Part shown: piece after piece, positions 14,995 through 57,791 of the stretch
Position numbering within the stretch: the first letter of the stretch is position 1
Layout of the letters: each line of letters starts with the position of its first letter
Source: Escherichia coli
GTDB lineage: Bacteria; Pseudomonadota; Gammaproteobacteria; Enterobacterales; Enterobacteriaceae
Assembly (NCBI RefSeq): GCF_965641715.1
Contig: NZ_OZ282453.1
Strand: one strand, 5' to 3'
DNA length: 64,000 nt
The notes under the pieces: model-generated
Told to the model about the DNA's origin: nothing
Seen by the model: only the letters and a program-made list of their open reading frames with translations
Databases searched by the model: none
Program-made: the position numbers and the translations under genes

Positions 14995-15255
14995 CGCCTA
15001 TTAACCATTCTGGTTATTCTTCATACACCGCAGAGATGTTACATTGATGCGGTGTATTTGTTTTTGCCGCATTAATGAACACTTATTTAATACTGCGAAT
15101 ATTCAGTGGATCTTAGTCCGAAACTGTACAAAGGCGATTGATTGTGCAACCACTGTCTCTTTATCATCCCTCGTGGCTGTGTAGCGGATGTACAGCTATA
15201 GTGTGTTATGCACTCAATCTACCCGGCATAACCTTTACTACAGGGATAACGTTCA

Positions 15256-15537
15256 ATGAATAAGTATTGGTTGTCAGGAGCTGTTTTTCTTGCTTATGGA
15301 CTAGCATCACCCGCGTTCTCTTCTGATACTGCAACATTAACCATCAATGGCAGAATTAGTTCCCCTACATGCAGTATGGATGTTGTTAATAATCATCTTC
15401 AGCAACGTTGTGGGCAGTTGTTACAACGAGTTGAAACCAACTATCGTGCTTCTTCTACTGCAAAAGGCGTTACGACAGAAGTGGTAGCTGTGGGTAATAA
15501 CGACAAACGCAAAATCGTGTTAAATCGCTACGATTAA
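15256..15537 (+). CDS. yehE: Small secreted protein YehE-like (93 aa)
   Basis: Signal-peptide-like N-terminus; position upstream of the fimbrial operon. Confidence 0.55.
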   Translation: MNKYWLSGAVFLAYGLASPAFSSDTATLTINGRISSPTCSMDVVNNHLQQRCGQLLQRVETNYRASSTAKGVTTEVVAVGNNDKRKIVLNRYD

Positions 15538-15828
15538 TTTGCCAACACCGTTTTAAGCATATTTAAAAAGCCAAAATCATTCCTATGAATGATTTTGGCT
15601 TTTTTATTCATCCCATAAATGTTATTTACGGTAATTTACGGTAATTAATCAGTTTCAAAAATGTTTGTTATAGCGAATTATTTGTTGTATTTATATCGCA
15701 TTAGTTAATTTGTTTTAAATCAACAAAACAATATGTTTACATTGCGGCAACCTTTTTGATGTGAGAAATTTGTTTCCAAGAGATACAGACTCTTAACAAA
15801 ACAAAATAAACTTATTAAGGAATGCATC

Positions 15829-16371
15829 ATGAAACATTCAATTATTGCTGTCGCTGTCTTATCTTCTGTATTTATGAGTGCTGGTATTTTCGCTGCTGAA
15901 GTAGATACCGGAACTTTAACCATTAAAGGTAATATTGCTGAATCACCATGTACATTTGTCGCTGGCGGTGATTCAGTCAGTATTAATATGCCGACTGTAC
16001 CCACCACTGTATTTGATGGAAAAGCGAAATATTCAACTTATGATGGCGCGGTTGGTGTAACCAGCAGTATGCTGAAAATTACTTGTCCGAAGACTATTGA
16101 TGGCGTAAAACTTTCGTTGATCACCAACGAGAAAATTCTTGGTAATGATAAGGCAATATCCAGTAGTAATGACACAGTTGGATACTATCTCTATTTGGGA
16201 GATAGCAGTGACGTACTGGATATTTCCGCACCATTTAATATTGAAAGTTATAAAACTGCTGATGGACAATATGCAATACCGTTTAAGGCAAAATATCTGA
16301 AGTTGACTGACAGTGGTGTTGCATCTGGTACTGTTAACTCTTCATTGGTTATGCGTGTTGCCCAGGATTAA
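15829..16371 (+). CDS. yehD: Fimbrial major subunit (chaperone-usher pathway)
   Basis: 180 aa, signal peptide MKHSIIAVAVLSSVFMSAGIFA, fimbrillin-like; first gene of the yeh operon. Confidence 0.75.
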   Translation: MKHSIIAVAVLSSVFMSAGIFAAEVDTGTLTIKGNIAESPCTFVAGGDSVSINMPTVPTTVFDGKAKYSTYDGAVGVTSSMLKITCPKTIDGVKLSLITNEKILGNDKAISSSNDTVGYYLYLGDSSDVLDISAPFNIESYKTADGQYAIPFKAKYLKLTDSGVASGTVNSSLVMRVAQD

Positions 16372-16410
16372 ATATTTAAAATAATCATCTTGTTTTTTCA
16401 GTAAGTTAAA

Positions 16411-17133
16411 ATGGCCGCCATATTCATGGCGGCCAGCATAAATATAAGAGGCATTAAGATGAAAGGGTTATTATCTTTACTCATCTCTTCTATGATATTC
16501 CCCGTGCATGCCGGAATGGTTATTTTCGGGACCCGTATCATTTACCCGGCAGAGCAGAAAGAGGTCATGGTACAACTGATGAATCAGGGAAACCGCTCTT
16601 CGCTGATGCAGGCGTGGATTGATGATGGCGACACGTCTCTGCCGCCAGAAAAGATTCAGGTTCCTTTCATGTTAACGCCACCAGTAGTGAAAGTAGCGGC
16701 CAATTCTGGGCAACAAATAAAAATTAAAATCATGCCTAATAAATTACCCAGTAATAAGGAAAGTATTTTTTATCTTAATGTTCTGGATATTCCACCGAAT
16801 AGCCCAGAAGATGAAGGAAAGAATGCGTTAAAATTTGCCATGCAAAACAGAATCAAGTTGTTTTACCGACCTGCTGGTATTGCTCCGGTAAATAAAACGA
16901 CTTTTAAAAAATTACGAGTGAGTCGTAGCGGTAATAACGTAGTCATAAAAAATGACTCGCCAAATTGGGTAACGATTTCTGATGTTAAGGCTAATAACGT
17001 CAAAGTGAATTATGAAACAATCATGATTGCACCACATGAAAGTCAGAATGTTAGTGTAAAAAATAATAATGCGAATAGCTGGCAACTGACCATTATCGAT
17101 GACCACGGCAACTATATTAGTGACAAAATTTAA
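16411..17133 (+). CDS. yehC: Periplasmic fimbrial chaperone (PapD-like)
   Basis: Track ORF; signal peptide MKGLLSLLISSMIFPVHAG; PapD-like motifs (IYPAEQKE, NRIKLFYRP); true start may be the internal Met at 16459. Confidence 0.8.
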   Translation: MAAIFMAASINIRGIKMKGLLSLLISSMIFPVHAGMVIFGTRIIYPAEQKEVMVQLMNQGNRSSLMQAWIDDGDTSLPPEKIQVPFMLTPPVVKVAANSGQQIKIKIMPNKLPSNKESIFYLNVLDIPPNSPEDEGKNALKFAMQNRIKLFYRPAGIAPVNKTTFKKLRVSRSGNNVVIKNDSPNWVTISDVKANNVKVNYETIMIAPHESQNVSVKNNNANSWQLTIIDDHGNYISDKI

Positions 17134-17148
17134 TTGCAGGAGCTGCCT

Positions 17149-19629
17149 ATGTTGAGAATGACCCCACTTGCATCAGCAATAGTCGCGTTATTGCTCGGCA
17201 TTGAAGCACATGCAGCAGAAGAAACCTTTGACACCCATTTTATGATGGGAGGAATGAAAGGTGAGCAAGTAACAAATTTGCGTCTTGATGATAATCAGCC
17301 TTTACCTGGGCAGTACGACATTGATATTTATGTCAATAAACAATGGCGTGGAAAATATGAGATTATCGTCAAAGATAACCCACATGAAACTTGCCTGACG
17401 CGTGAAATTGTAAAGCGGTTAGGTATAAATAGCGATAATTTTGCACGCGAAAATCAGTGTTTAACATTTGAGCAACTTGTTCAGGGCGGAAGCTACTCCT
17501 GGGATATTGGGATTTTTCGTTTGGATCTCGCTGTTCCGCAAGCCTGGGTCGAAGAGCTGGAAAATGGTTACGTTCCGCCAGTAAACTGGGAGCGGGGAAT
17601 CAATGCGTTTTATACGTCTTATTACGTAAGTCAGTATTACAGTGACTATAAAGCCTCGGGCAATAGTAAGAGCACTTATGTGCGTTTTAACAGTGGGCTA
17701 AATTTGCTGGGATGGCAGCTGCATTCAGATGCCAGTTTTAGCAAAACGGATAATAATCCTGGTGAGTGGAAAAGCAACACACTGTTTCTGGAGCATGGAT
17801 TTTCTCAAATTCTCGGTGCGCTGCGTATTGGTGATATGTACACCTCATCCGATATATTTGATTCCGTTCGCTTCACCGGGGTTCGGTTATTTCGTGATAT
17901 GCAGATGTTGCCAAACTCGAAGCAAAATTTTACCCCACGGGTACAGGGGATTGCCCAGAGTAACGCGTTGGTAACTATTGAACAGAACGGTTTTGTCGTT
18001 TATCAGAAAGAGGTTCCACCAGGTCCGTTTTCGATTAGTGATTTGCAGTTAGCGGGCGGAGGGGCGGATCTTGATGTTAGTGTTAAGGAAGCCGATGGTT
18101 CTGTGACTACGTATCTGGTGCCTTATGCGGCAGTACCTAATATGCTGCAACCAGGTGTATCAAAATATGATTTTGCGGCAGGCCGTAGTCATATTGAAGG
18201 TGCGAGCAAGCAAAGTGATTTTGTCCAGGTCGGTTATCAGTATGGTTTTAATAATTTATTGACGCTGTATGGCGGCACGATGGTTGCTAATAATTACTAT
18301 GCCTTTACCCTCGGAACAGGTTGGAACACGCGTATTGGCGCAATTTCAGTCGATGCAACTAAATCGCACAGTAAGCAAGACAATGGTGATGTGTTTGACG
18401 GACAAAGTTATCAAATTGCCTATAACAAATTTTTGAGCCAAACATCAACACGTTTTGGTCTGGCGGCCTGGCGTTATTCGTCGCGTGATTACCGCACATT
18501 TAACGATTATGTGTGGGCAAATAATAAAGATAATTATCGTCGTGATAAAAACGATGTCTATGATATTGCCGATTATTACCAGAATGATTTTGGTCGCAAA
18601 AATAGCTTTTCCGCCAATATGAGTCAGTCATTGCCAGAAGGCTGGGGATCTGTGTCATTAAGTACTTTATGGCGTGATTACTGGGGGCGAAGCGGCAGTA
18701 GTAAAGATTATCAACTGAGTTATTCCAATAACTGGCGGCGGATAAGCTATACCCTCGCGGCAAGCCAGGCGTATGACGAGAACCACGCCGAAGAGAAACG
18801 CTTTAATATTTTTATATCGATTCCCTTTGACTGGGGCGATGACGTTACGACGCCGCGGCGGCAAATATATATGTCTAACTCAACGACCTTTGATGATCAG
18901 GGTTTTGCTTCAAACAATACCGGATTATCGGGAACCGTTGGGAACCGCGATCAGTTTAACTATGGTATCAACTTGAGCCATCAACATCAGGGAAATGAAA
19001 CGACAGCTGGGGCCAATTTGACCTGGACCGCACCGGCCGCAACAGTGAATGGCAGCTATAGTCAGTCGAGTACTTATCGACAGGTCGGAGCCAGTGTTTC
19101 AGGGGGACTGGTTGCCTGGTCTGGTGGCGTTAATCTGGCGAACCGTCTTTCCGAAACGTTTGCAGTGATGCATGCGCCGGGAATCAAAGATGCTTATGTC
19201 AATGGGCAAAAATATCGCACAACAAACCGTAATGGTGTGGTGGTGTACGACGGACTGACACCTTATCGGGAAAATCACCTGATGATGGATGTGTCGCAAA
19301 GCGATAGCGAAACAGAATTACGCGGGAATCGTAAAATGACCGCCCCTTATCGCGGCGCGGTCGTTCTGGTTGATTTTGATACCGATCAGCGTAAGCCCTG
19401 GTTTATAAAAGCATTAAGATCCGATGGACAGCCATTAACGTTTGGTTATGAAGTCAATGATATGCATGGTCATAACATTGGTGTTGTCGGCCAGGGCAGT
19501 CAGATATTTATTCGCACCAATGAAATACCGCCAGCGGTTAATGTGGCAATTGATAAGCAACAAGGGCTTTCATGCACAATCACCTTCGGTAAAGAGATTG
19601 ATGAAAGTAAAAATTATATCTGTCGGTGA
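17149..19629 (+). CDS. yehB: Fimbrial outer-membrane usher
   Basis: About 826 aa from MLRMTPLASAIVALLLG; usher-type; start set at an internal ATG of the track ORF. Confidence 0.85.
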   Translation: MLRMTPLASAIVALLLGIEAHAAEETFDTHFMMGGMKGEQVTNLRLDDNQPLPGQYDIDIYVNKQWRGKYEIIVKDNPHETCLTREIVKRLGINSDNFARENQCLTFEQLVQGGSYSWDIGIFRLDLAVPQAWVEELENGYVPPVNWERGINAFYTSYYVSQYYSDYKASGNSKSTYVRFNSGLNLLGWQLHSDASFSKTDNNPGEWKSNTLFLEHGFSQILGALRIGDMYTSSDIFDSVRFTGVRLFRDMQMLPNSKQNFTPRVQGIAQSNALVTIEQNGFVVYQKEVPPGPFSISDLQLAGGGADLDVSVKEADGSVTTYLVPYAAVPNMLQPGVSKYDFAAGRSHIEGASKQSDFVQVGYQYGFNNLLTLYGGTMVANNYYAFTLGTGWNTRIGAISVDATKSHSKQDNGDVFDGQSYQIAYNKFLSQTSTRFGLAAWRYSSRDYRTFNDYVWANNKDNYRRDKNDVYDIADYYQNDFGRKNSFSANMSQSLPEGWGSVSLSTLWRDYWGRSGSSKDYQLSYSNNWRRISYTLAASQAYDENHAEEKRFNIFISIPFDWGDDVTTPRRQIYMSNSTTFDDQGFASNNTGLSGTVGNRDQFNYGINLSHQHQGNETTAGANLTWTAPAATVNGSYSQSSTYRQVGASVSGGLVAWSGGVNLANRLSETFAVMHAPGIKDAYVNGQKYRTTNRNGVVVYDGLTPYRENHLMMDVSQSDSETELRGNRKMTAPYRGAVVLVDFDTDQRKPWFIKALRSDGQPLTFGYEVNDMHGHNIGVVGQGSQIFIRTNEIPPAVNVAIDKQQGLSCTITFGKEIDESKNYICR

Positions 19630-19639
19630 GAGGTGAAAT

Positions 19640-20674
19640 ATGATGTTCAGAAATGCAATATTACTAATATTTATATTGTGGGCTAATTTTACCTGGGCTG
19701 GATGTCGTACTACTGCATCATTAAATATTACTGATAGTATTAATGTTGGGGGGATTTTAGCGAATGAAACTTCCTTTAGTAAAAGTGTCGTGTTTACTGG
19801 GATATCTTGTGATACGAGCACGGATAAAATAGTTTATAAAAATATCCAAAGTGATTGGGTTGAAGTTGGGCCTTTTGGTAATGGCGAAAAATTAAAGGTT
19901 AAAATAGAGTCTTTAGGTAAAACCAGCGACACGATTGGGAAATCCAGCAATGCGCAGGCAGTATTACCCTATGTGGTTAAAATAGCCAGAGGTACACCTG
20001 ATTTTACTGGAGAAAGAAAATCTACCTGGTTTATTTCAGATACCGTGATTGCAAATATTGGCGGTGAGTCATCGTCATCCATCGACTTTTGGTTGGGTAT
20101 TTGTAAGGCATTGAAGTTTAACTGGTGTGTGAATTATCTCACCAGCAAACTGGCGGGGGATACTTTTACGCTTGGGTTAAGTATTTCCTATTATCCTAAA
20201 AATACGACCTGTAAGCCTGAAAACACAGTTATAAAAGTAGATGATATCGCCTTGTCCCAGCTCAGAAATCAGGGAAAGATTGCGGCGAACAGTAAGGAAG
20301 GAACAATTACGTTGAAATGTGATAATCTTTTCGGCGACAAAAAACAAGCATCGCGGAATATGGTTGTATATCTTTCTAGCAGTGACTTAGTTAAAGGAAG
20401 TAATACTATTTTGCGTGGTAAAACAGATAATGGTGTAGGGTTTGTGTTGGATCTAACAGAACCACCAAAAGGGACTGAGGCTGCCATTAAAATTTCGGCC
20501 AACGGCGATCAGGGCGCGGCGACATCATTATGGAAAACAGATAAACCAGGAGTTTCATTAAATAGCAACATTATTAATATACCTGTCATGGCCAGTTACT
20601 ATGTATATGATGAAAAAAAAGTTAAATCTGGCGTACTGGAGGCAACCGCATTAATCAACGTGAAATACGACTAA
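19640..20674 (+). CDS. yehA: Fimbrial adhesin-like tip protein
   Basis: 344 aa with signal peptide; last gene of the operon; AT-rich. Confidence 0.7.
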   Translation: MMFRNAILLIFILWANFTWAGCRTTASLNITDSINVGGILANETSFSKSVVFTGISCDTSTDKIVYKNIQSDWVEVGPFGNGEKLKVKIESLGKTSDTIGKSSNAQAVLPYVVKIARGTPDFTGERKSTWFISDTVIANIGGESSSSIDFWLGICKALKFNWCVNYLTSKLAGDTFTLGLSISYYPKNTTCKPENTVIKVDDIALSQLRNQGKIAANSKEGTITLKCDNLFGDKKQASRNMVVYLSSSDLVKGSNTILRGKTDNGVGFVLDLTEPPKGTEAAIKISANGDQGAATSLWKTDKPGVSLNSNIINIPVMASYYVYDEKKVKSGVLEATALINVKYD

Positions 20675-20755
20675 TAACAAGCAAGACGAGCAAGTGGCTA
20701 ATAATAAGAAATAATAAGGTGTCTGCATTTCCCCCTCTCTCCGAGGGGGCTTTTT

Positions 20756-21094
20756 TTAGCGATGATAAAAAATCTCACCGTCGTAGGCTTTAATGATTTT
20801 TCCGTCGGTATTATTGATCAGCACATATGCACCGCCCATATAGGTCCAGTGGGTTCCGGCGTCAGGTGCGGGCAGGTTACGCAACTGCCACTGCTTAATG
20901 TTGTACTCATCGGTACGGTACATCTCTGGTACGGTGTCACCTGGTTTGAAATGCTTGAAGTCAGCAATGAAGCTGCTTAACTCATACTTTGAAATTCCCG
21001 AGGCATTGGTCGAACCCGCGGTGGCTGGTGCGGCCCATGCTGCGCTGGTTACCAGCAAAAGCGCACCCAGCAACATCTTATTTTTTATGGTCAT
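20756..21094 (-). CDS. rcnB: Periplasmic nickel/cobalt homeostasis protein RcnB (YohN)
   Basis: 112 aa from MTIKNKMLLGALLLVTSAAWA (signal peptide); downstream of rcnA; track ORF is longer but the start was chosen at the signal peptide. Confidence 0.7.
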   Translation of the reverse strand: MTIKNKMLLGALLLVTSAAWAAPATAGSTNASGISKYELSSFIADFKHFKPGDTVPEMYRTDEYNIKQWQLRNLPAPDAGTHWTYMGGAYVLINNTDGKIIKAYDGEIFYHR

Positions 21095-42180: not shown

Positions 42181-44461
42181 GACTCGGGGGCGTATTGCCC
42201 CCTCGCTAGCCCTGCCAATATCTAAGCGCACCGGCGATACTTTCGTTGGTGCTTATCCCTGGAATGCTCCCCGCGCTGCCATTGGCCGTGACAGACCCCT
42301 TACACGTGCCGAATTCCGTCAGGTGCAAGGTGTTTTATACCGGATTGACCGCCTGCCTTTCTTTCTTAAGACGTTGTTTACTTCCCGTTATAACTTCATT
42401 CGTCGCACAAAGAGCCCGCCCGGGGCGCTCTATTTCCTGAAAAACACCTTTGAGCGGAAGCTGTTGCCGCGTCTTGAGCGCGTTAACGAGCTGTGCGGGA
42501 TGAATGAATCTGCGTCGATTGGTTTCTTGTCTGAGCGTGACGAATATGCGCGCTTGCCTGATATGAATGACAAAGAGCTGAAAAAATTTGCGGCCAGAAT
42601 TGCCGCGCAGCTCTGGCGTAAATACGAGGAACTCAGCGACGAATGGGCTGAGGCATTCGGCGGTAAAGAGACCCTTTTCACCGATGAGGCGCAGGTGCAC
42701 ATATATGGTCAGGTGGCTGGTGTTGCACGCGCGTTCAACTTAACCCCGCTCTACTGGAAAAAATACCGTAAGGGTCAGATGACGATCCGCATGGCGTTTT
42801 CCGCTATTTCCCGTCTGATAAAAGATGATTGGTGGGTTAACCAGCTCAAGGCGCAGCGTATGCGCTGGCGCGAGGCGCTGCTTATCGCTGCCGGTGAAGT
42901 CAACAAAGACCGTTCACCTTACGCCAGCAAAATGGCGATCCGCGAGGTTCACTCGCGCCGGCTGGCTAATCTCGAATACCTGAAATCCTGTGAGCTGGAA
43001 AACAAAGTTACCGGCGAACGTATCGACCTCATCAGTAAAGTCATGGGGAGTATTTCAAACCCTGAAATACGCCGTATGGAGCTGATGAACACCATTGCCG
43101 GAATTGAACGCTATGCGGCCAGCGTTGGTGATGTGGGAATGTTTATCACGCTGACCACGCCGTCGAAGTATCACCCGACCCGACAGGTCGGCAAAGGTGA
43201 CAGCAAAACGGTGCAGCTCAATCACGGCTGGAACGAAACCGCATTCACCCCTAAAAACGGCCAGCGCTATCTGTGCCGAATCTGGAGCCTGATGCGTACC
43301 GCTTTCAAAGATAACGATTTGGAAGTGTATGGGATGCGCGTTGTCGAGCCGCACCACGACGGCACGCCACACTGGCATATGATGCTTTTTTGCAAACTCA
43401 GTCAGCGTAAAGCTATCAACGAAATTATGCGTCGTTATGCCCTCAAAGAGGACGGACACGAAAAGGGCGCGGCAAAACAGCGCTTTGAGTCGCGTCACCT
43501 TAATCAGGGGGGCGCGGCGGGTTATATCGCCAAATACATTGCCAAAAATATCGACGGCTACGCGCTTGACGGTCAGCTCGATCACGATACCGGCAAATCT
43601 CTGAAAGATACGGCCGCAGCCGTAACCGCATGGGCGTCTACATGGCGTATCCCTCAGTTTAAACCGATTGGCCTCCCGACAATGGGCGCTTACCGCGAAC
43701 TGCGTAAGCTGCCGCGCGGGGTGAGTATCGCCAGCGAGTTTGACGACCGTGTCGAGGCCGTCCGGGCTGCTGCAGATGAGGGGGAATTTGACCTGTACAT
43801 CAGCGCGCAGGGTGGGGCAAACATGCCGCGTGATGCTCAGGCGGTCAGGGTCGCCCGTAAGGTGACGGATGAGGTAAACGAATACGAGGAGGATATCGAG
43901 AAAGTGGTCGGTATTTATGCCCCTCATCTTGGGGTGAGCCGCGTACATGTAACCCGTACAGCGGAATGGCGCATAGTTCCAAAGGTTTTGGCCGTTGAGC
44001 CTTTGACCTTAAAAAGCGGCTCTGCCGCGCCTCGGAGTCCTGTCAATAACTGTGGAAAGCTTGCCGACGGTGGCGATCCAGTTATGACACCTACACCGTC
44101 TGAGCAAGCCGCAGCGGTGTTAAATCTGATTGAGGCCGGGGTTATCGGCTGGAATGAGCCAGACGTCATGAAGGTTCTTAACGGCGCGTTAAAAGCTGGC
44201 GCACCTCGCAATAATCGCCAGCAAAGAAGCAATGCGCCACTCAAAACGAGCGAGCAAGCTCCATCAGCCAGGATGACAACACCAGAAAGGGATCGCGTGG
44301 CGAAAATTCGTTTCGATTTGGCTCAGGAGGGCATTACCCCAGAACGGTGGGCGCTCGAAGCGCTGGCGCGTGGGGCAACGGTGATTTATGGCGATAAAAA
44401 AATCAAATACGCGGCTGCTGATGAGTGGCCGGGATTCTCAATTCAAGAGGAGCAGAATTAA
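42170..44461 (+). CDS. A: Replication initiation endonuclease A (rolling-circle Rep)
   Basis: About 763 aa from MAVETRGRIAPSLALPISKRTGDTFVGAYPW; HUH-like motif (HHDGTPHWHMMLF) and active-site Tyr region (AGYIAKYIAKNIDGY). Confidence 0.9.
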   Translation: MAVETRGRIAPSLALPISKRTGDTFVGAYPWNAPRAAIGRDRPLTRAEFRQVQGVLYRIDRLPFFLKTLFTSRYNFIRRTKSPPGALYFLKNTFERKLLPRLERVNELCGMNESASIGFLSERDEYARLPDMNDKELKKFAARIAAQLWRKYEELSDEWAEAFGGKETLFTDEAQVHIYGQVAGVARAFNLTPLYWKKYRKGQMTIRMAFSAISRLIKDDWWVNQLKAQRMRWREALLIAAGEVNKDRSPYASKMAIREVHSRRLANLEYLKSCELENKVTGERIDLISKVMGSISNPEIRRMELMNTIAGIERYAASVGDVGMFITLTTPSKYHPTRQVGKGDSKTVQLNHGWNETAFTPKNGQRYLCRIWSLMRTAFKDNDLEVYGMRVVEPHHDGTPHWHMMLFCKLSQRKAINEIMRRYALKEDGHEKGAAKQRFESRHLNQGGAAGYIAKYIAKNIDGYALDGQLDHDTGKSLKDTAAAVTAWASTWRIPQFKPIGLPTMGAYRELRKLPRGVSIASEFDDRVEAVRAAADEGEFDLYISAQGGANMPRDAQAVRVARKVTDEVNEYEEDIEKVVGIYAPHLGVSRVHVTRTAEWRIVPKVLAVEPLTLKSGSAAPRSPVNNCGKLADGGDPVMTPTPSEQAAAVLNLIEAGVIGWNEPDVMKVLNGALKAGAPRNNRQQRSNAPLKTSEQAPSARMTTPERDRVAKIRFDLAQEGITPERWALEALARGATVIYGDKKIKYAAADEWPGFSIQEEQN

Positions 44462-44925
44462 TGAGCAAAATCCATGAGTTAAAAATTGCACCTGAGTATT
44501 TTAACTCTGTGATATCTCAGGAAAAACGTGCTGAATTTCGTCTCAATGACCGCGATTATTCTAGCGGTGATATTCTCGGGTTGCATGAATGGGAACCGGT
44601 AAACAGATATACCGGGAAACGTGTATCAGTGAGGGTGACAAACGTTACGGATTTATCTGAATGGGCGGAAAATTATGTGATGCTGAGTTTTCAGTTAATG
44701 ATGCCAGATGTCCAGTGCGGTATGTCCCTAATGAACTGGAAAGAGTTAAGCGAGAAGGGGCTTGTTTTCAGAGTTAATCACGAAATTCTACACCCGTTAG
44801 GGCTGGCTATTAGATATGAAACACTTAACAGCGTTTCTGGTAGGGCTTACATCGCTGATGATGGTGTCTGGCAATATTCCGACAAGTTGGTCGCAGATGC
44901 TAAAAAAAATGGGTGGTTAAAATGA
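44461..44925 (+). CDS. Hypothetical phage protein (154 aa), possible PUA/ASCH-like fold
   Basis: Start ATG overlaps the A stop; N-terminus MSKIHELKIAPEYFNSVISQEKRAEFRLNDRDY. Confidence 0.5.
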   Translation: MSKIHELKIAPEYFNSVISQEKRAEFRLNDRDYSSGDILGLHEWEPVNRYTGKRVSVRVTNVTDLSEWAENYVMLSFQLMMPDVQCGMSLMNWKELSEKGLVFRVNHEILHPLGLAIRYETLNSVSGRAYIADDGVWQYSDKLVADAKKNGWLK

Positions 44926-45161
44926 GTCATATGCGAATGATGCCAGTGCCGCCGATACATTCAACGCAAAACATTAAGCTGATGGCCGTCGTACATCGCC
45001 TGCAACAAATTATGATTAACGAGAATCTGACCCCTGACGAACTGGTCGGGTGTGCCGGTGTCGTCCGGGATAATCACCGCAAATACAGCGATATCAGCAA
45101 TCCGAAAATTGAGGCGTTTCGGCCACCAAATATGGCAAAGCCACCACCGCGTCGACCATAG
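44913..45161 (+). CDS. Hypothetical small ORF (82 aa)
   Basis: Track ORF only. Confidence 0.3.
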   Translation: MVKMSHMRMMPVPPIHSTQNIKLMAVVHRLQQIMINENLTPDELVGCAGVVRDNHRKYSDISNPKIEAFRPPNMAKPPPRRP

Positions 45162-45443
45162 CAAACGCCGCCGGTGCTGAAACTTGTTTTCAGTGCCAGC
45201 GGTGTTGAGCAACGAGCCCCGCGAGACGTTAGCCTGCACCGTAGAGACCACCCCCAACCGGCACGATTAAAGTCGGTTTTATTATGCAATTTTCCCACAA
45301 TTTCCCGGTTTTTTAGCCGTGCATGCAACAGGTGCATTTTTTTGCATACGTTGGGGATGCCTGTTCTGGCCGCGCGCCGCCAGAGCAGGCGCGGATCCAG
45401 AGTGGTCATGCAACTGCATTAAAAACGACCCATAAAGCGGGCA

Positions 45444-45462
45444 GGCGAGGCGGGGTAAGCGT
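45444..45462. other. Candidate cos (cohesive-end) site
   Basis: Seen: GGCGAGGCGGGGTAAGCGT; the first 12 nt match the P2/186 cohesive end GGCGAGGCGGGGAAAGCAC as I recall it; sits in a GC-rich, structured non-coding stretch. Confidence 0.5.
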
Positions 45463-45533
45463 TGCGCGCGCCTGTCAAAGATATTAAGATTGTCTCAAAA
45501 TCGATTGATTTTATTGAACTAATGGAGCTAGGA

Positions 45534-47090
45534 ATGATTAAGGGTATAGGTCTTCAAAACTTCAGGAGCTTTGTCAACAAAACGTTTATTGATTTAAAAC
45601 CAATTACAGTATTTGTTGGTAAGAACAGCAGTGGTAAAAGTTCCCTATTGCGCACATTTCCTTTACTTCGTCAATCTGTAGAAGAAAATACTACTGGCCC
45701 AATACTATGGTATGGGAGATATGTGGATTTTGGCGATTTTACAGATGTACTTTCCCGAAACTCTGAAAAAAAAGAAATTACGTTTAGTTTTTCACTCTCA
45801 ATTCCGCCAGAGGTTTCACAAAGATATACATATTATCGTTCTACTGATTTAGCAAAGCAACCAACAGATATTGAAGCAGAGTTAACTGTTTACTCTAAAG
45901 ATAAAAAAACAAAAACGAAAACGATTAAGCTTATATTGGCTGATTTAACAATATTTATTTCAATGGATGAGAGTAGTAATGTTAAATTACTCATTGAATC
46001 AGATGATAAAACAATAGAGCGTGATGGGATAATAGCTAAAAATCTTGGGCAGTTCATACCAAATCTAATTTTGAAGGGTAAGGAAGACAGTCCTCCTCCA
46101 AGCACATCATTCTATTTGAGACATTCTAGGCATGACAGGGCGTTAGAATTGTCATTTATTGATTCAGCGGCGAAATATATAAAGAAATATTTCCATACTA
46201 AATCTGATATAAATCAAGTGACAGAGGCATTCAAAAGAATTGGCTTTATACCCAAAGCGTACGCTAGTAAATTAGTTGCTTTTCTATTTAAGGAACAAAA
46301 AGTTTTTAGTAGAAACTTTGAATTTCAACATGATGAAATAATGAATGAGTTATATCCATTTATAATTGGATGGAATATTAATAATCTTATAGATATAATA
46401 AATACATCCTTGTCAGATTCATTCAGAAATGTAAAGTACATAGCTCCACTGCGTGCTACATCAGAAAGATTTTATCGTTTTCAAGATTTACAGGTTAATG
46501 AGATAGATCATACTGGTTCCAATCTTGCAATGCTTTTGAATTCATTAAGACCGGCTGATAAATCAAAATTTGAAGATTGGACAAAGTTAAATTTTGATTT
46601 CATTATCAAGGTTGAACAAAGTGGCTCTCACTTTGCAATTTTAATAAACACCGGTGAAAATAGTGAGAACTATAATGTTAGTGATATGGGGTTTGGTTAT
46701 TCTCAGGTTTTGCCGATAGTTACAGCCATTTGGCTTGAGACAGAACGTCGTGCTACCACGGTTAGAAAACCTATAACATTTATCATTGAGCAGCCAGAAT
46801 TGCATTTACATCCGTCATATCAGCATAATTTAGCAAGTATTTTTGCAAAAGTAGTAACTAAAGCAAAAGAAAATAATGTAGATTTGAAGATAATTTTTGA
46901 GACACATAGCCAGACCATGATTGAAGCACTTGGTGAATATATTGAGGAAAATGAAAGTCTTTCACAGGATGATATTTCAATACTGGTATTTGAAAAAGAT
47001 GATAAGCAGCAGACTATAGTTAAGAAATCTTATTTTGACGAGAATGGTTTCCTAAAAAATTGGCCGGTTGGCTTTTTCTCGGGTAAGTAG
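45534..47090 (+). CDS. Cargo gene 1: ABC/OLD-type (AAA_15/AAA_21-like) ATPase, about 518 aa
   Basis: Walker A GKNSSGKSS; Walker B/D-loop FIIEQPELHLHP; H-loop-like IFETHS; AT-rich; SD GGAG upstream of the ATG chosen at MIKGIGLQNFRSF. Confidence 0.75.
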   Translation: MIKGIGLQNFRSFVNKTFIDLKPITVFVGKNSSGKSSLLRTFPLLRQSVEENTTGPILWYGRYVDFGDFTDVLSRNSEKKEITFSFSLSIPPEVSQRYTYYRSTDLAKQPTDIEAELTVYSKDKKTKTKTIKLILADLTIFISMDESSNVKLLIESDDKTIERDGIIAKNLGQFIPNLILKGKEDSPPPSTSFYLRHSRHDRALELSFIDSAAKYIKKYFHTKSDINQVTEAFKRIGFIPKAYASKLVAFLFKEQKVFSRNFEFQHDEIMNELYPFIIGWNINNLIDIINTSLSDSFRNVKYIAPLRATSERFYRFQDLQVNEIDHTGSNLAMLLNSLRPADKSKFEDWTKLNFDFIIKVEQSGSHFAILINTGENSENYNVSDMGFGYSQVLPIVTAIWLETERRATTVRKPITFIIEQPELHLHPSYQHNLASIFAKVVTKAKENNVDLKIIFETHSQTMIEALGEYIEENESLSQDDISILVFEKDDKQQTIVKKSYFDENGFLKNWPVGFFSGK

Positions 47091-47092
47091 TT

Positions 47093-48205
47093 ATGTTGAT
47101 TAATATCGAAAATGCGACACCTGAGAAGGTGCTAAATAACTCATTTGCCATAGCGGTTGAAAATATACTTCGGGCATTCGCTGAACAAAAACACTTGGTT
47201 ATAGGGGCAAGGGTTTTTTTTAAAACTATTATCAATGATCAAAGCGGGCTTTATAGCCTTTCATCAAAAAGTTACGCGCAAGAGGCTTTGTCGGGTCTAA
47301 CAGAGTACTATGCTATCTTGGATCAGGTCTCATTTTATGTATCTGTCGACTTTAATATTAGTGATAAATCATTTAAATGGGTTCAGATCGGTGAATCTTT
47401 TAAATTTGTTTGTGGTCCATTGTATTTTAATGACTCGGCACAATTGCAAAAAACGAAAATAGTATGTGAAAATCCTTTGGATTCTGATTTTTTTAAGGTT
47501 ATAGCGGCTCATTATGCCGAAGGTATTAACTTATCTCGCTGCGAAATGGGTTTTATCGCTCTAAATGGCGGTGGGGGCAGTACTAAGGATATATTCGAGC
47601 GTGCAATTCAAAATAATGAGATAGTTTTTTGTATTGTGGATAATGACAAAAAACATCCTGGAGCCCCATTCGGAGGTACTTGCTCACATTTTTTGGGCTC
47701 ACAAATTACTCGCTCAGGTTTCGTGGAGATTTTAGATGTACATGAAATAGAATCTCTAGTTCCTTTATCGACAATTGAAGATGTATTAAGAAGTCAAAGT
47801 CAATTGCAACAAAAAGAAAAATCTCTCATTTTCTTTAAGCATCTTTGCTCCGTAGATGAATCAGTAAAATTTTATATTGACCATAAAAAAGGTTTTGATT
47901 TTAAAACAGCCCTTGAACTCGATCGAAAACATGGTGCATATTGGCGTCCGATATTAAAGAAGCTTGATATAAAATATGATTGTGAGTATATCGAATCAAA
48001 ACGTTGTAGCTGCAACGCTGCTTGTGTAAGTTATGATGGTTTTGGAGAGAATTTGCTCAGCAATACATTGAAATATATACAAAAGGGAAGTTTAAAAAAA
48101 TATAATCCTCACCTAACACCAGTGCTTTCTGATAAATGGTATAAGTTAGGTAAGAATTTCTTTAGTTGGAGTTGTGGTCCATATAAAAAAGCAAGGGTTG
48201 GTTAA
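47093..48205 (+). CDS. Cargo gene 2: 370-aa partner protein, possible TOPRIM/DUF4435-like effector with C-terminal Cys cluster
   Basis: ATG 2 nt after the cargo-1 stop; hydrophobic strand plus DxD (IVFCIVDNDKKHPG); CEYIESKRCSCNAAC cluster; AT-rich. Confidence 0.65.
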   Translation: MLINIENATPEKVLNNSFAIAVENILRAFAEQKHLVIGARVFFKTIINDQSGLYSLSSKSYAQEALSGLTEYYAILDQVSFYVSVDFNISDKSFKWVQIGESFKFVCGPLYFNDSAQLQKTKIVCENPLDSDFFKVIAAHYAEGINLSRCEMGFIALNGGGGSTKDIFERAIQNNEIVFCIVDNDKKHPGAPFGGTCSHFLGSQITRSGFVEILDVHEIESLVPLSTIEDVLRSQSQLQQKEKSLIFFKHLCSVDESVKFYIDHKKGFDFKTALELDRKHGAYWRPILKKLDIKYDCEYIESKRCSCNAACVSYDGFGENLLSNTLKYIQKGSLKKYNPHLTPVLSDKWYKLGKNFFSWSCGPYKKARVG

Positions 48206-48300
48206 ATTATCACAGCCCCGATAAAGTGGGCTGTGATGTTATTATCTGTGGTTCTTGAGTTACAGGGCTGAATATAATGTTGAGATGTTTATTTTGAAAA

Positions 48301-49308
48301 TCAAAGTGAATATTTTTTAAATCTTATAACTTCCATTTCTAACCAGTTGTTTAGTTCTTTGAACCGTTCCTGTAAAGGAGTTAACTCATTTCGGACAAAC
48401 ACTTGTGCAGCTTTTACAACATCACCAAAACCGCCAACATTGTCAGGCATAATTCCCATCATTTGTGGTGGTACCCTATGAGCACTCAACAAATCTTCTG
48501 CACTAACCTTTTTGATATTGAAAAAATCATCTTTCGTGGCGACTTCACTCAACGGCACAATCTTGATGCCATCCGGTTTCCCGTTGGGCGCGTAGAAAAA
48601 CAGGTTTTTGAAATTCCCGAGTCCTTTTGAGTCGCGCATCGCGTTACGGAGAGATTCAACATCGGTGCTGCTCTGTGCCGCGTCGGTGACATACATGATG
48701 TACCCCGCATGTGCGCCATTCTGATAATACTTGCGGCGAAACAGGGTAGCGGATTCATTCAGCCAGGCGGAATTAAGCGCGCTCAGGTATTCCGGCATCC
48801 CGTACAGCTCCTGATTGATATCGGGCTCAAGCAGGTGACACACAGAACCGGGGGCGAACGGGTGCGGCTGGGTGTAGCTCGACACGTACCAGTAAACGCC
48901 ATCTTCGACACCCCGGCGGGTGTATTTGGCCGGTGAGGTTTCCAGTTTTAAGAGCTGGCCGGTGACGCTCATGCGCTTCTCAAGATAGCCGTTGGCAAAA
49001 ACCAGATAATCAAGCACAAGGCGACTGAAATCCTGACGTGACAGCAACGGGTGCGGGATATAGGTGCTCGTCAGAATGTTACGTTTCACGTAAATCGGCG
49101 AGCTGTGATGGACGGCGGCGCGCAGGCTTTTTGCCAGTCCCGAGAAATTGACCGGCGGCTCGTACCATTTCCCGTTATTGATACACTCTACGTAGTCGAG
49201 GATGTCGCGGCGATCCAGAACGGGAGAAGGCTCACCAAAGGTGAACGCCTCCATTTTTTGCGGTGCGCTGGCGGTCATTGTGGCGGGTTTCTTCTGTCGT
49301 TTTTTCAT
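48301..49308 (-). CDS. Q: Portal protein (gpQ)
   Basis: 335 aa; position and length as P2 Q; divergent from the capsid operon. Confidence 0.85.
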   Translation of the reverse strand: MKKRQKKPATMTASAPQKMEAFTFGEPSPVLDRRDILDYVECINNGKWYEPPVNFSGLAKSLRAAVHHSSPIYVKRNILTSTYIPHPLLSRQDFSRLVLDYLVFANGYLEKRMSVTGQLLKLETSPAKYTRRGVEDGVYWYVSSYTQPHPFAPGSVCHLLEPDINQELYGMPEYLSALNSAWLNESATLFRRKYYQNGAHAGYIMYVTDAAQSSTDVESLRNAMRDSKGLGNFKNLFFYAPNGKPDGIKIVPLSEVATKDDFFNIKKVSAEDLLSAHRVPPQMMGIMPDNVGGFGDVVKAAQVFVRNELTPLQERFKELNNWLEMEVIRFKKYSL

Positions 49309-57038: not shown

Positions 57039-57791
57039 CTAACGTTCGAATATTATTATCACCCCAAGAGTGAGATGTATATGATCTTCTATTTGTTCAT
57101 ATTCTTCTTGGGTGTAAGAAAGTTTAGCTAATTCTTCTGTTGCTGAAAAGACATCAATGGATACTTGGACGCCTGATGGGATTTCATTTTTTATTTCATT
57201 AATGTATTTGTTGTATTTTCTTGTGATTAGTATTATTGCGCGATCTCTGTCGACGGTGGTTGAGCAATATCGATTGGATTTGCTGTTGTTATTGTGGAAT
57301 GATTCGAATGCGCAATTGAGGGCAAGTCTTAGATTTGATGATCCTGTATTTCCAGTGTGATTGAAGTATTCTATGTTTCTTCTTAAGTCTTCAAATAGTT
57401 TTGCCTTATTTGGATTGTCCCCTTTAACTTCAATAGCACATTTTGGATAATCAAACCCATTATTATTGCCTAGTATGGCAATGTCTATCCTACCTTTTCT
57501 GGTTGTGTTTGCTTTGATTCTTAGTATTTGCCTTGAAAATATTTTCCCCGGCGTTAGTCTTTTTGAAAATGGCACCGTTGAAGTTATAAAATCCCCTGTA
57601 TCATATTCAAAAATTATTTTCTCATCATCTATGTGAAAATTTTTACTATCAAGTAGGGCTTTGCCTATTGATACAGTAGCGACGTATTCGGTATTGATTT
57701 TACCACCAGAACTGAAATTCATTAAACGTGTGATTTTAGCTGCATTGGACATGCCATCCTTTACTGCTGTGATTATTTCGTAATTGTCCAT
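57039..57791 (-). CDS. Cargo gene (moron), 250 aa, candidate PD-(D/E)xK-fold nuclease
   Basis: Opposite strand to the late genes; AT-rich; motif RIDIAILG...CAIEVKGD (D...E-x-K). Confidence 0.6.
   Translation of the reverse strand: MDNYEIITAVKDGMSNAAKITRLMNFSSGGKINTEYVATVSIGKALLDSKNFHIDDEKIIFEYDTGDFITSTVPFSKRLTPGKIFSRQILRIKANTTRKGRIDIAILGNNNGFDYPKCAIEVKGDNPNKAKLFEDLRRNIEYFNHTGNTGSSNLRLALNCAFESFHNNNSKSNRYCSTTVDRDRAIILITRKYNKYINEIKNEIPSGVQVSIDVFSATEELAKLSYTQEEYEQIEDHIHLTLGVIIIFER

Follow-up and report, generated by a model that had tools for sequence, protein, structure and literature searches.

The window analysed here, 64,000 nucleotides of an Escherichia coli chromosome bearing a P2-like prophage, contains two adjacent genes on the same strand, the first encoding an ATP-binding cassette (ABC) ATPase and the second a protein of 370 amino acids annotated as 'hypothetical protein' in RefSeq, which is referred to below as the partner. 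The partner is probably (about 0.7) an effector nuclease belonging to an anti-phage module that consists of two genes, is carried by the prophage and is of the kind in which an OLD-type ABC ATPase is combined with a separate Toprim nuclease, and its role as a defence effector as such is considered probable to the same degree. The kind of system, an ABC ATPase plus a Toprim protein, is already known; new is the family of the partner, which is unannotated and has no Pfam family.

The open reading frame (ORF) of the partner represents a genuine gene. When 1.84 billion cluster representatives were searched with a profile, 1950 relatives passed E ≤ 1e-3, of which 485 also passed E ≤ 1e-30. Nearly all of the relatives are 330–390 amino acids long and aligned end to end, and the AlphaFold2 model, built on an alignment of 75 homologues, reached a pLDDT (the predicted score of the local distance difference test) of 94.2 and a predicted template modelling (pTM) score of 0.92. 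All statements on conservation below refer to this alignment of 75 diverse sequences with a mean column identity of 32%. The ORF had been delimited correctly in an earlier, model-generated reading of the DNA letters (the original prediction), with exact bounds (47093–48205, plus strand) and a length of 370 amino acids plus stop. The identical E. coli protein is recorded on at least 1000 contigs.

A Toprim core with conserved acidic residues

In the model, the partner is composed of an N-terminal alpha/beta domain (residues 1–118), a Toprim domain (approximately residues 119–224) and a helical domain (residues 225–370). The middle domain has the four-strand alpha/beta core, the glutamate after strand 1 and the DxD motif after strand 3 by which a Toprim domain is recognised, and belongs to the OLD-like class of this fold. 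In fold and in its conserved putative metal ligands, the partner family is similar to the nucleases of OLD, PARIS and Gabija. Strand 1 leads into E126, strand 2 into a glycine-rich loop, strand 3 into the DxD motif and strand 4 into the HEIE motif. Residues M1, E126, G159, G161, D183, D185 and E220 are invariant in 75 of 75 homologues, and D130, G160, C180, P189, G194, T196, E218, P224, D263, K265, G267, W284, W349 and W359 are conserved in at least 90% of them.

The original prediction had proposed a TOPRIM-like nuclease on the basis of two motifs, both of which are present (GFIALNGGGGSTKD and IVFCIVDNDKKHPG, with 24 residues from GGGG to DND). The core of that idea holds with respect to the fold, the conserved acidic residues and the motifs once these are corrected, but the motif assignment itself has to be revised. 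The GGGGS segment had been taken as Toprim strand 1; in fact the loop comes after strand 2 (residues 150–158). Similarly, the catalytic glutamate, described as not obvious, is E126, which directly follows the strand of residues 122–125. Both corrections follow from the Toprim arrangement. Two further candidate explanations were considered and dropped, namely a missing catalytic glutamate, because E126 is invariant, and a pseudo-nuclease, because every catalytic-type position is conserved.

It is highly probable that the partner is an active OLD-type Toprim nuclease. Judged from its motifs, it would possess a two-metal OLD-like active site in which E126, D183 and D185 act on the first metal, whereas the second metal would be held by D130, E218 and E220, with K265 supplied from the helical domain.

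Comparison with known families yielded weak matches. The PADLOC candidate PDC-M55B matches residues 123–281 of the partner (E 2e-4) and, again over the Toprim region, five of the ten other family members tested (E 1e-7 to 4e-3); no other PADLOC model matches the partner family, and the one for AriB matched neither the partner nor the family members tested. In a Foldseek search of the model against the Protein Data Bank (PDB), the top matches were GajA, Eco2 and the Xanthomonas OLD protein, which are on the right theme but weak and not significant (E ≥ 0.035; nothing at E ≤ 0.001). Nothing meaningful for the partner was found in NCBIfam or PHROGs, and no DUF4276 or RloB match was obtained for any of the 75 family members. 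A third homologue search, with a profile of the 75 sequences and directed at distant relatives with Pfam annotation, gave only known close relatives among the matches listed.

Pairing with an ABC ATPase in a P2 hotspot

The ATPase encoded directly upstream has intact Walker A (GKNSSGKS), Walker B (FIIEQPE) and H-loop (FETHS) motifs and ends in a DUF3696 tail. Its Pfam matches are AAA_15 (1e-26), AAA_21 (1.7e-9) and DUF3696 (1.1e-6, residues 477–515), and the PADLOC models matching it are NsnB (4.9e-55, residues 25–539), PDC-M55A (7.5e-46), HEC-03B (1.8e-37) and AriA (7.2e-31). The stop codon of the ATPase gene lies 2 nucleotides before the ATG of the partner, which is translationally coupled to it.

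The pairing with an NsnB-like ATPase is obligate. A homologous ATPase gene was found directly upstream of the partner gene in all 16 loci examined, as had been foreseen by the original prediction when it called the protein the partner or effector of an ATPase. Some of these loci belong to P2-like phages, from E. coli or from metagenomes. The others come from a Pseudomonas phage of the Pf-like type, a Pseudomonas site next to an integrase gene, Thiothrix, a cyanobacterium and short contigs of metagenomes. The ATPase is full length in all 16, except in two contigs cut at their ends and in the Thiothrix copy, which is interrupted by an insertion sequence. The identities of the ATPase and the partner decrease in parallel (79/67, 50/38, 34/27 and 32/25%), and in one metagenomic P2-like phage the arrangement of gpA, the pair and the portal gene is the same even though the identity of the partner is just 38%. 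No third conserved gene was found across the gathered neighbourhoods. In particular, NsnA (ParB-DUF262 plus ParBDB) is absent from every locus examined; upstream of the pair in the window are gpA, a DUF3850 gene and a small hypothetical ORF. Among 150 listed representatives (189–396 amino acids), no form with the ATPase and the Toprim domain fused was seen.

Two of the homologous loci deserve separate description. In the filamentous Pf-like Pseudomonas phage 62-2 (OR621022.1, 4399–7035), the pair is situated at one end of the 12.6-kb genome, and its partner, annotated as 'putative OLD family nuclease', lacks the cysteine insert described below entirely. In Thiothrix unzii (CP072793.1, 3338–7101), the ATPase gene is split by an inserted transposase (helix-turn-helix plus DDE_3), and the partner gene is intact. 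Such a split would be unexpected if the ATPase restrains a toxic nuclease, and therefore either the locus is perhaps in decay or the nuclease, when alone, is perhaps inert.

The gene order given by RefSeq is integrase, cox, gpA (replication endonuclease), DUF3850 protein, small hypothetical ORF, ATPase and partner, followed on the opposite strand by portal and terminase genes. The pair is therefore positioned between gpA and the portal gene gpQ, the place occupied in P2 by old and tin. This locus was shown to be a hotspot of anti-phage defence, with further cargo unrelated to defence, including toxins and partition systems (Rousset et al. 2022). The catalogue in that paper lists exactly these two proteins, with 105 occurrences, as system 36 of the P2 hotspot under the label 'AAA_15/AAA_21/AAA_23', the partner being left unannotated. 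The 2.9-kb stretch 45400–48300 recurs at 100% identity in several complete E. coli genomes; it occurs in 57 of 5426 genomes, always on the chromosome. The guanine-plus-cytosine (GC) content of the two-gene cassette is 33.7%, compared with 54% for gpA, which marks the cassette as foreign cargo.

Several features of the surroundings may be added. Between gpA and the cassette (window 44425–45161, plus strand) there are a DUF3850/ASCH-like ORF (phrog_1812, 5.9e-51) and an ORF of 82 amino acids (phrog_11386); these look like phage backbone, since P2 has a DUF3850 gene (Orf91) at the same position. A divergent P2-like contig (L016) has the pair without a comparable ORF of at least 100 amino acids. 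Elsewhere in the prophage, an ORF of 250 amino acids with about 33.5% GC (57039–57791, minus strand) encodes a strong homologue of Tin (PADLOC Tin, 5.6e-93), which is placed among tail and baseplate genes and not in the gpA–gpQ hotspot where P2 has tin; this prophage therefore has defence cargo at two separate variable loci. Outside the prophage, a broad stretch of low GC (36–44%) with positive GC skew at window positions 15001–21000 may represent another horizontally acquired island. A scan of 44900–48400 for promoters and terminators was uninformative, because the sites were no more numerous than in shuffled sequence.

N-terminal domain and cysteine insert

The view of the original prediction that the domain layout is unlike that of AriB and OLD proteins has proved correct, in that an additional alpha/beta domain of 118 residues is present at the N-terminus of the partner, which does not match DUF4435. 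When residues 1–120 were folded alone, the matches obtained were generic Rossmann-like folds only, and an identity of this domain as an inactive PIN domain is consequently unsupported. A function as an adaptor is proposed for it.

The helical domain carries an optional insert of about 24 residues that contains at least three cysteines, mostly exactly four, in 59 of the 75 homologues and is missing in the remaining 16. The commonest spacings among the homologues are C-x5-C-x-C-x3-C and C-x5-C-x2-C-x2-C. At position 299, where the family usually has its first cysteine, the partner has a tyrosine (residues 297–299, window 47981–47989), and C297, shared by few relatives, may stand in for it; close enterobacterial relatives have cysteines at both 297 and 299 (C-x-C). 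A further cysteine close to the C-terminus, C361, is present in 53 of the 59 homologues with the insert, compared with 2 of the 16 without it. The confidence of the model is low in the cysteine region (pLDDT 64–69), in which no hairpins are seen.

The cluster noticed in the original prediction therefore exists, but with a spacing of x7 instead of x8 and not at the C-terminus, from which it is about 60 residues away as an insert of the helical domain. The C-terminal zinc ribbon deduced from it could not be upheld, the four cysteines falling within 15 residues of a low-confidence loop that belongs to an insert absent in 16 of the 75 homologues. As for a classical zinc ribbon, with two beta-hairpin knuckles and a family-wide CxxC...CxxC pattern, it was rejected on account of the 7-1-3 spacings, the lack of hairpins and the excessive compactness of the cluster. 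The pattern of the insert and the co-occurrence of C361 fit a structural metal site of optional occurrence, for Zn or conceivably Fe-S, by which the C-terminal tail would be tied to the helical domain.

Table 1. Positions of the partner gene, its motifs and domains, and the upstream ATPase gene in the window.
Feature	Coordinates	Strand	Remarks	Source
Partner (effector) gene	47093..48205	+	WP_000906719, 'hypothetical protein'; 370 amino acids plus stop	ORF list; RefSeq
N-terminal alpha/beta domain	47093..47446	+	Residues 1–118; M1 the only invariant residue; proposed adaptor	
Toprim core	47447..47764	+	About residues 119–224; strands 122–125, 150–158, 178–183, 209–214	
VCENPLD	47462..47482	+	E126 invariant (proposed catalytic Glu); D130 at least 90% conserved	75-sequence alignment
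GFIALNGGGGSTKD	47549..47590	+	Residues 153–166; Gly-rich loop that follows Toprim strand 2; G159, G161 invariant	
IVFCIVDNDKKHPG	47621..47662	+	Residues 177–190; Toprim strand 3, then DxD motif; D183 and D185 invariant	
HEIE	47741..47752	+	After strand 4; E218 at least 90% conserved, E220 invariant; proposed second-metal ligands	
DHKKG	47879..47893	+	D263, K265 and G267 each at least 90% conserved; K265 candidate counterpart of Burkholderia OLD K562	
Cys cluster	47981..48025	+	C297-x7-C305-x-C307-x3-C311; optional helical-domain insert; probable metal site	
C361	48173..48175	+	In SWSCG; co-occurs with the Cys insert	
ABC ATPase gene	45534..47090	+	518 amino acids from the RefSeq start (longest ORF from 45462)	RefSeq 'DUF3696 domain-containing protein'

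Proposed function and relation to known systems

A mechanism may be envisaged in which the NsnB-like ATPase with its DUF3696 tail would keep the nuclease inactive, probably via the N-terminal domain of the latter. On sensing an infecting phage, the ATPase would release or activate the nuclease, which would then use two-metal catalysis to cut nucleic acid (DNA or tRNA/RNA), so that the infection would be aborted and the lysogen population protected. The specific logic of sequestration and release is put forward tentatively.

A number of observations weigh against the proposed role. No Pfam family was assigned to the partner even at E ≤ 10, nor to 15 homologues, nor to any of the 75, and a sequence-profile search of the PDB returned nothing relevant, only a chance match to RPB5 (E 1.4). 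By hhalign, the family profile was not significantly similar to the AriB/DUF4435 alignment (E 0.02, probability 2%) or to two AriB sequences (the probabilities over the AriB comparisons ranging from 2 to 5%), and nothing was found with the C-terminal part of P2 Old (E 0.54). The role assigned to the N-terminal domain comes without any specific fold match, and that the acidic residues converge in one pocket is predicted from the Toprim topology. Furthermore, the system has been catalogued, but the tested systems tabulated by Rousset et al. (2022) include neither of the two proteins; it is known here from sequence and models.

Combinations of an ABC ATPase and a Toprim protein are well described (PARIS, HEC-01 and, in fused form, OLD and Gabija). 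If the pair were a divergent PARIS, it would comprise an AriB (DUF4435) orthologue and AriA, sense anti-restriction proteins such as Ocr and cleave tRNA. The PADLOC AriA model indeed matches the ATPase at 7.2e-31, but the scores against NsnB and PDC-M55A are far better and a DUF3696 tail is present; likewise, hhalign sets the glutamate motif and the glycine loop of the AriB and partner families in register, although non-significantly, at the probabilities of 2–5% given above. In addition, DUF4435 (PF14491) is matched neither by the partner nor by any of the 75 family members, and the partner is about 60 residues longer than AriB, which lacks the 118-residue N-terminal domain and has its E/D motif already at residues 37–41. 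A divergent PARIS is hence highly unlikely. The pair might also be a reduced Menshen, consisting of NsnB and NsnC without NsnA. NsnB was described as an ABC ATPase plus DUF3696 helix, two such tails being predicted to clamp the N-terminal domain of NsnC, and NsnC as an N-terminal adaptor followed by a C-terminal nuclease, the nuclease domains including Toprim folds, with DUF4276 and RloB among those reported (PMC12065111). In such a system the partner would be an NsnC-type effector, with an inactive PIN domain docking on the DUF3696 tails and a Toprim toxin domain after it. NsnB is indeed the best PADLOC match of the ATPase, which also combines AAA_15 with DUF3696 as described for NsnB, and the partner shares the two-part layout of a non-catalytic N-terminal domain followed by a nuclease domain. 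Nevertheless, the ParB-DUF262 NsnA is present in 0 of the loci examined, whereas in the Menshen survey (PMC12065111) the three genes are described as associated in a conserved manner; NsnA was the starting point of that survey, and NsnA-less pairs therefore lie outside it. As the partner moreover has no recognisable PIN domain and its family is unmatched by DUF4276 and RloB, the reduced Menshen is regarded as unlikely.

Alternatively, the pair might serve the prophage itself in DNA repair or recombination, replication or partition, or as an addiction module resembling a toxin-antitoxin system. The gpA–gpQ locus also carries partition systems and toxins (Rousset et al. 2022), there are weak RecF/SMC/Rad50-type matches in the N-terminal part of the ATPase, and mobile elements of several kinds carry the pair. 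However, the ATPase has its best-scoring matches exclusively among models of defence systems, the low-GC foreign cassette moves among elements that are not related (P2-like phage, Pf-like phage and a site adjoining an integrase gene), and the pairs of ABC ATPase and Toprim protein with known function are defence systems, positive evidence for a housekeeping or addiction role being absent. A function outside immunity is accordingly judged very improbable, and the partner is best considered as the effector of a defence module. Whether this module amounts to a distinct, unnamed anti-phage system between PARIS and Menshen is evenly balanced. In such a system, an NsnB-type ATPase without NsnA would directly control a private Toprim family (about 2000 clusters at 50% identity, without Pfam) with a docking domain of its own at the N-terminus and a metal site of the type Cys4(+1), for Zn or possibly for Fe-S, pinning the C-terminal tail to the helical domain, distributed over P2-like and Pf-like phages and other loci resembling mobile elements.

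If this interpretation is correct, fold and catalytic site would be assigned, together with a probable role, to a large family listed as 'hypothetical' in all the sources consulted, and the catalogue of the P2 defence hotspot would gain a testable addition. The pair would also represent a natural experiment on NsnB-type ATPases without NsnA, with a bearing on the Menshen mechanism and on the exchange of nuclease effectors among ABC ATPases. No new principle would be introduced, pairs of ABC ATPase and Toprim protein being a well-described theme.

Among characterised proteins, the class 2 OLD nuclease of Burkholderia pseudomallei (PDB 6NK8) resembles the partner in having a Toprim core followed by a helical domain. 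In the Burkholderia enzyme, metal A is bound by E400, D455 and D457 and metal B by E404, T506 and E508, with K562 coming from the helical domain (PMC6755086). In order and spacing, E400, E404, D455, D457, T506, E508 and K562 parallel E126, D130, D183, D185, E218, E220 and K265, the common pattern being E-x3-E/D, DxD, (T/E)-x-E and finally Lys, from which we infer a putative one-to-one correspondence of these residues. In OLD, however, the ATPase and Toprim domains are fused in one polypeptide, whereas here they are encoded by two ORFs; similarity to the partner at the sequence level is absent, and the partner family adds the N-terminal alpha/beta domain and the cysteine-rich insert.

The PADLOC candidate PDC-M55 is similar in both components, PDC-M55A matching the ATPase (7.5e-46) and PDC-M55B the Toprim region of the partner, but the latter match is weak, covers about 150 of 370 residues and is lacking in four to five of the ten other members, and PDC-M55 is itself an untested candidate. 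HEC-01 likewise consists of an ABC ATPase plus a Toprim protein, and defence was not detected in the assays reported for it. The resemblance to PARIS is one of organisation, in that the OLD-type ABC ATPase and the Toprim nuclease are encoded by separate genes within a P2/P4 defence hotspot, and the adjacent AAA_15/AAA_21 ATPase gene that is a feature of PARIS is found here as well. By analogy with PARIS, an ATPase that holds the nuclease until triggered may be the likely regulatory logic of the present pair.
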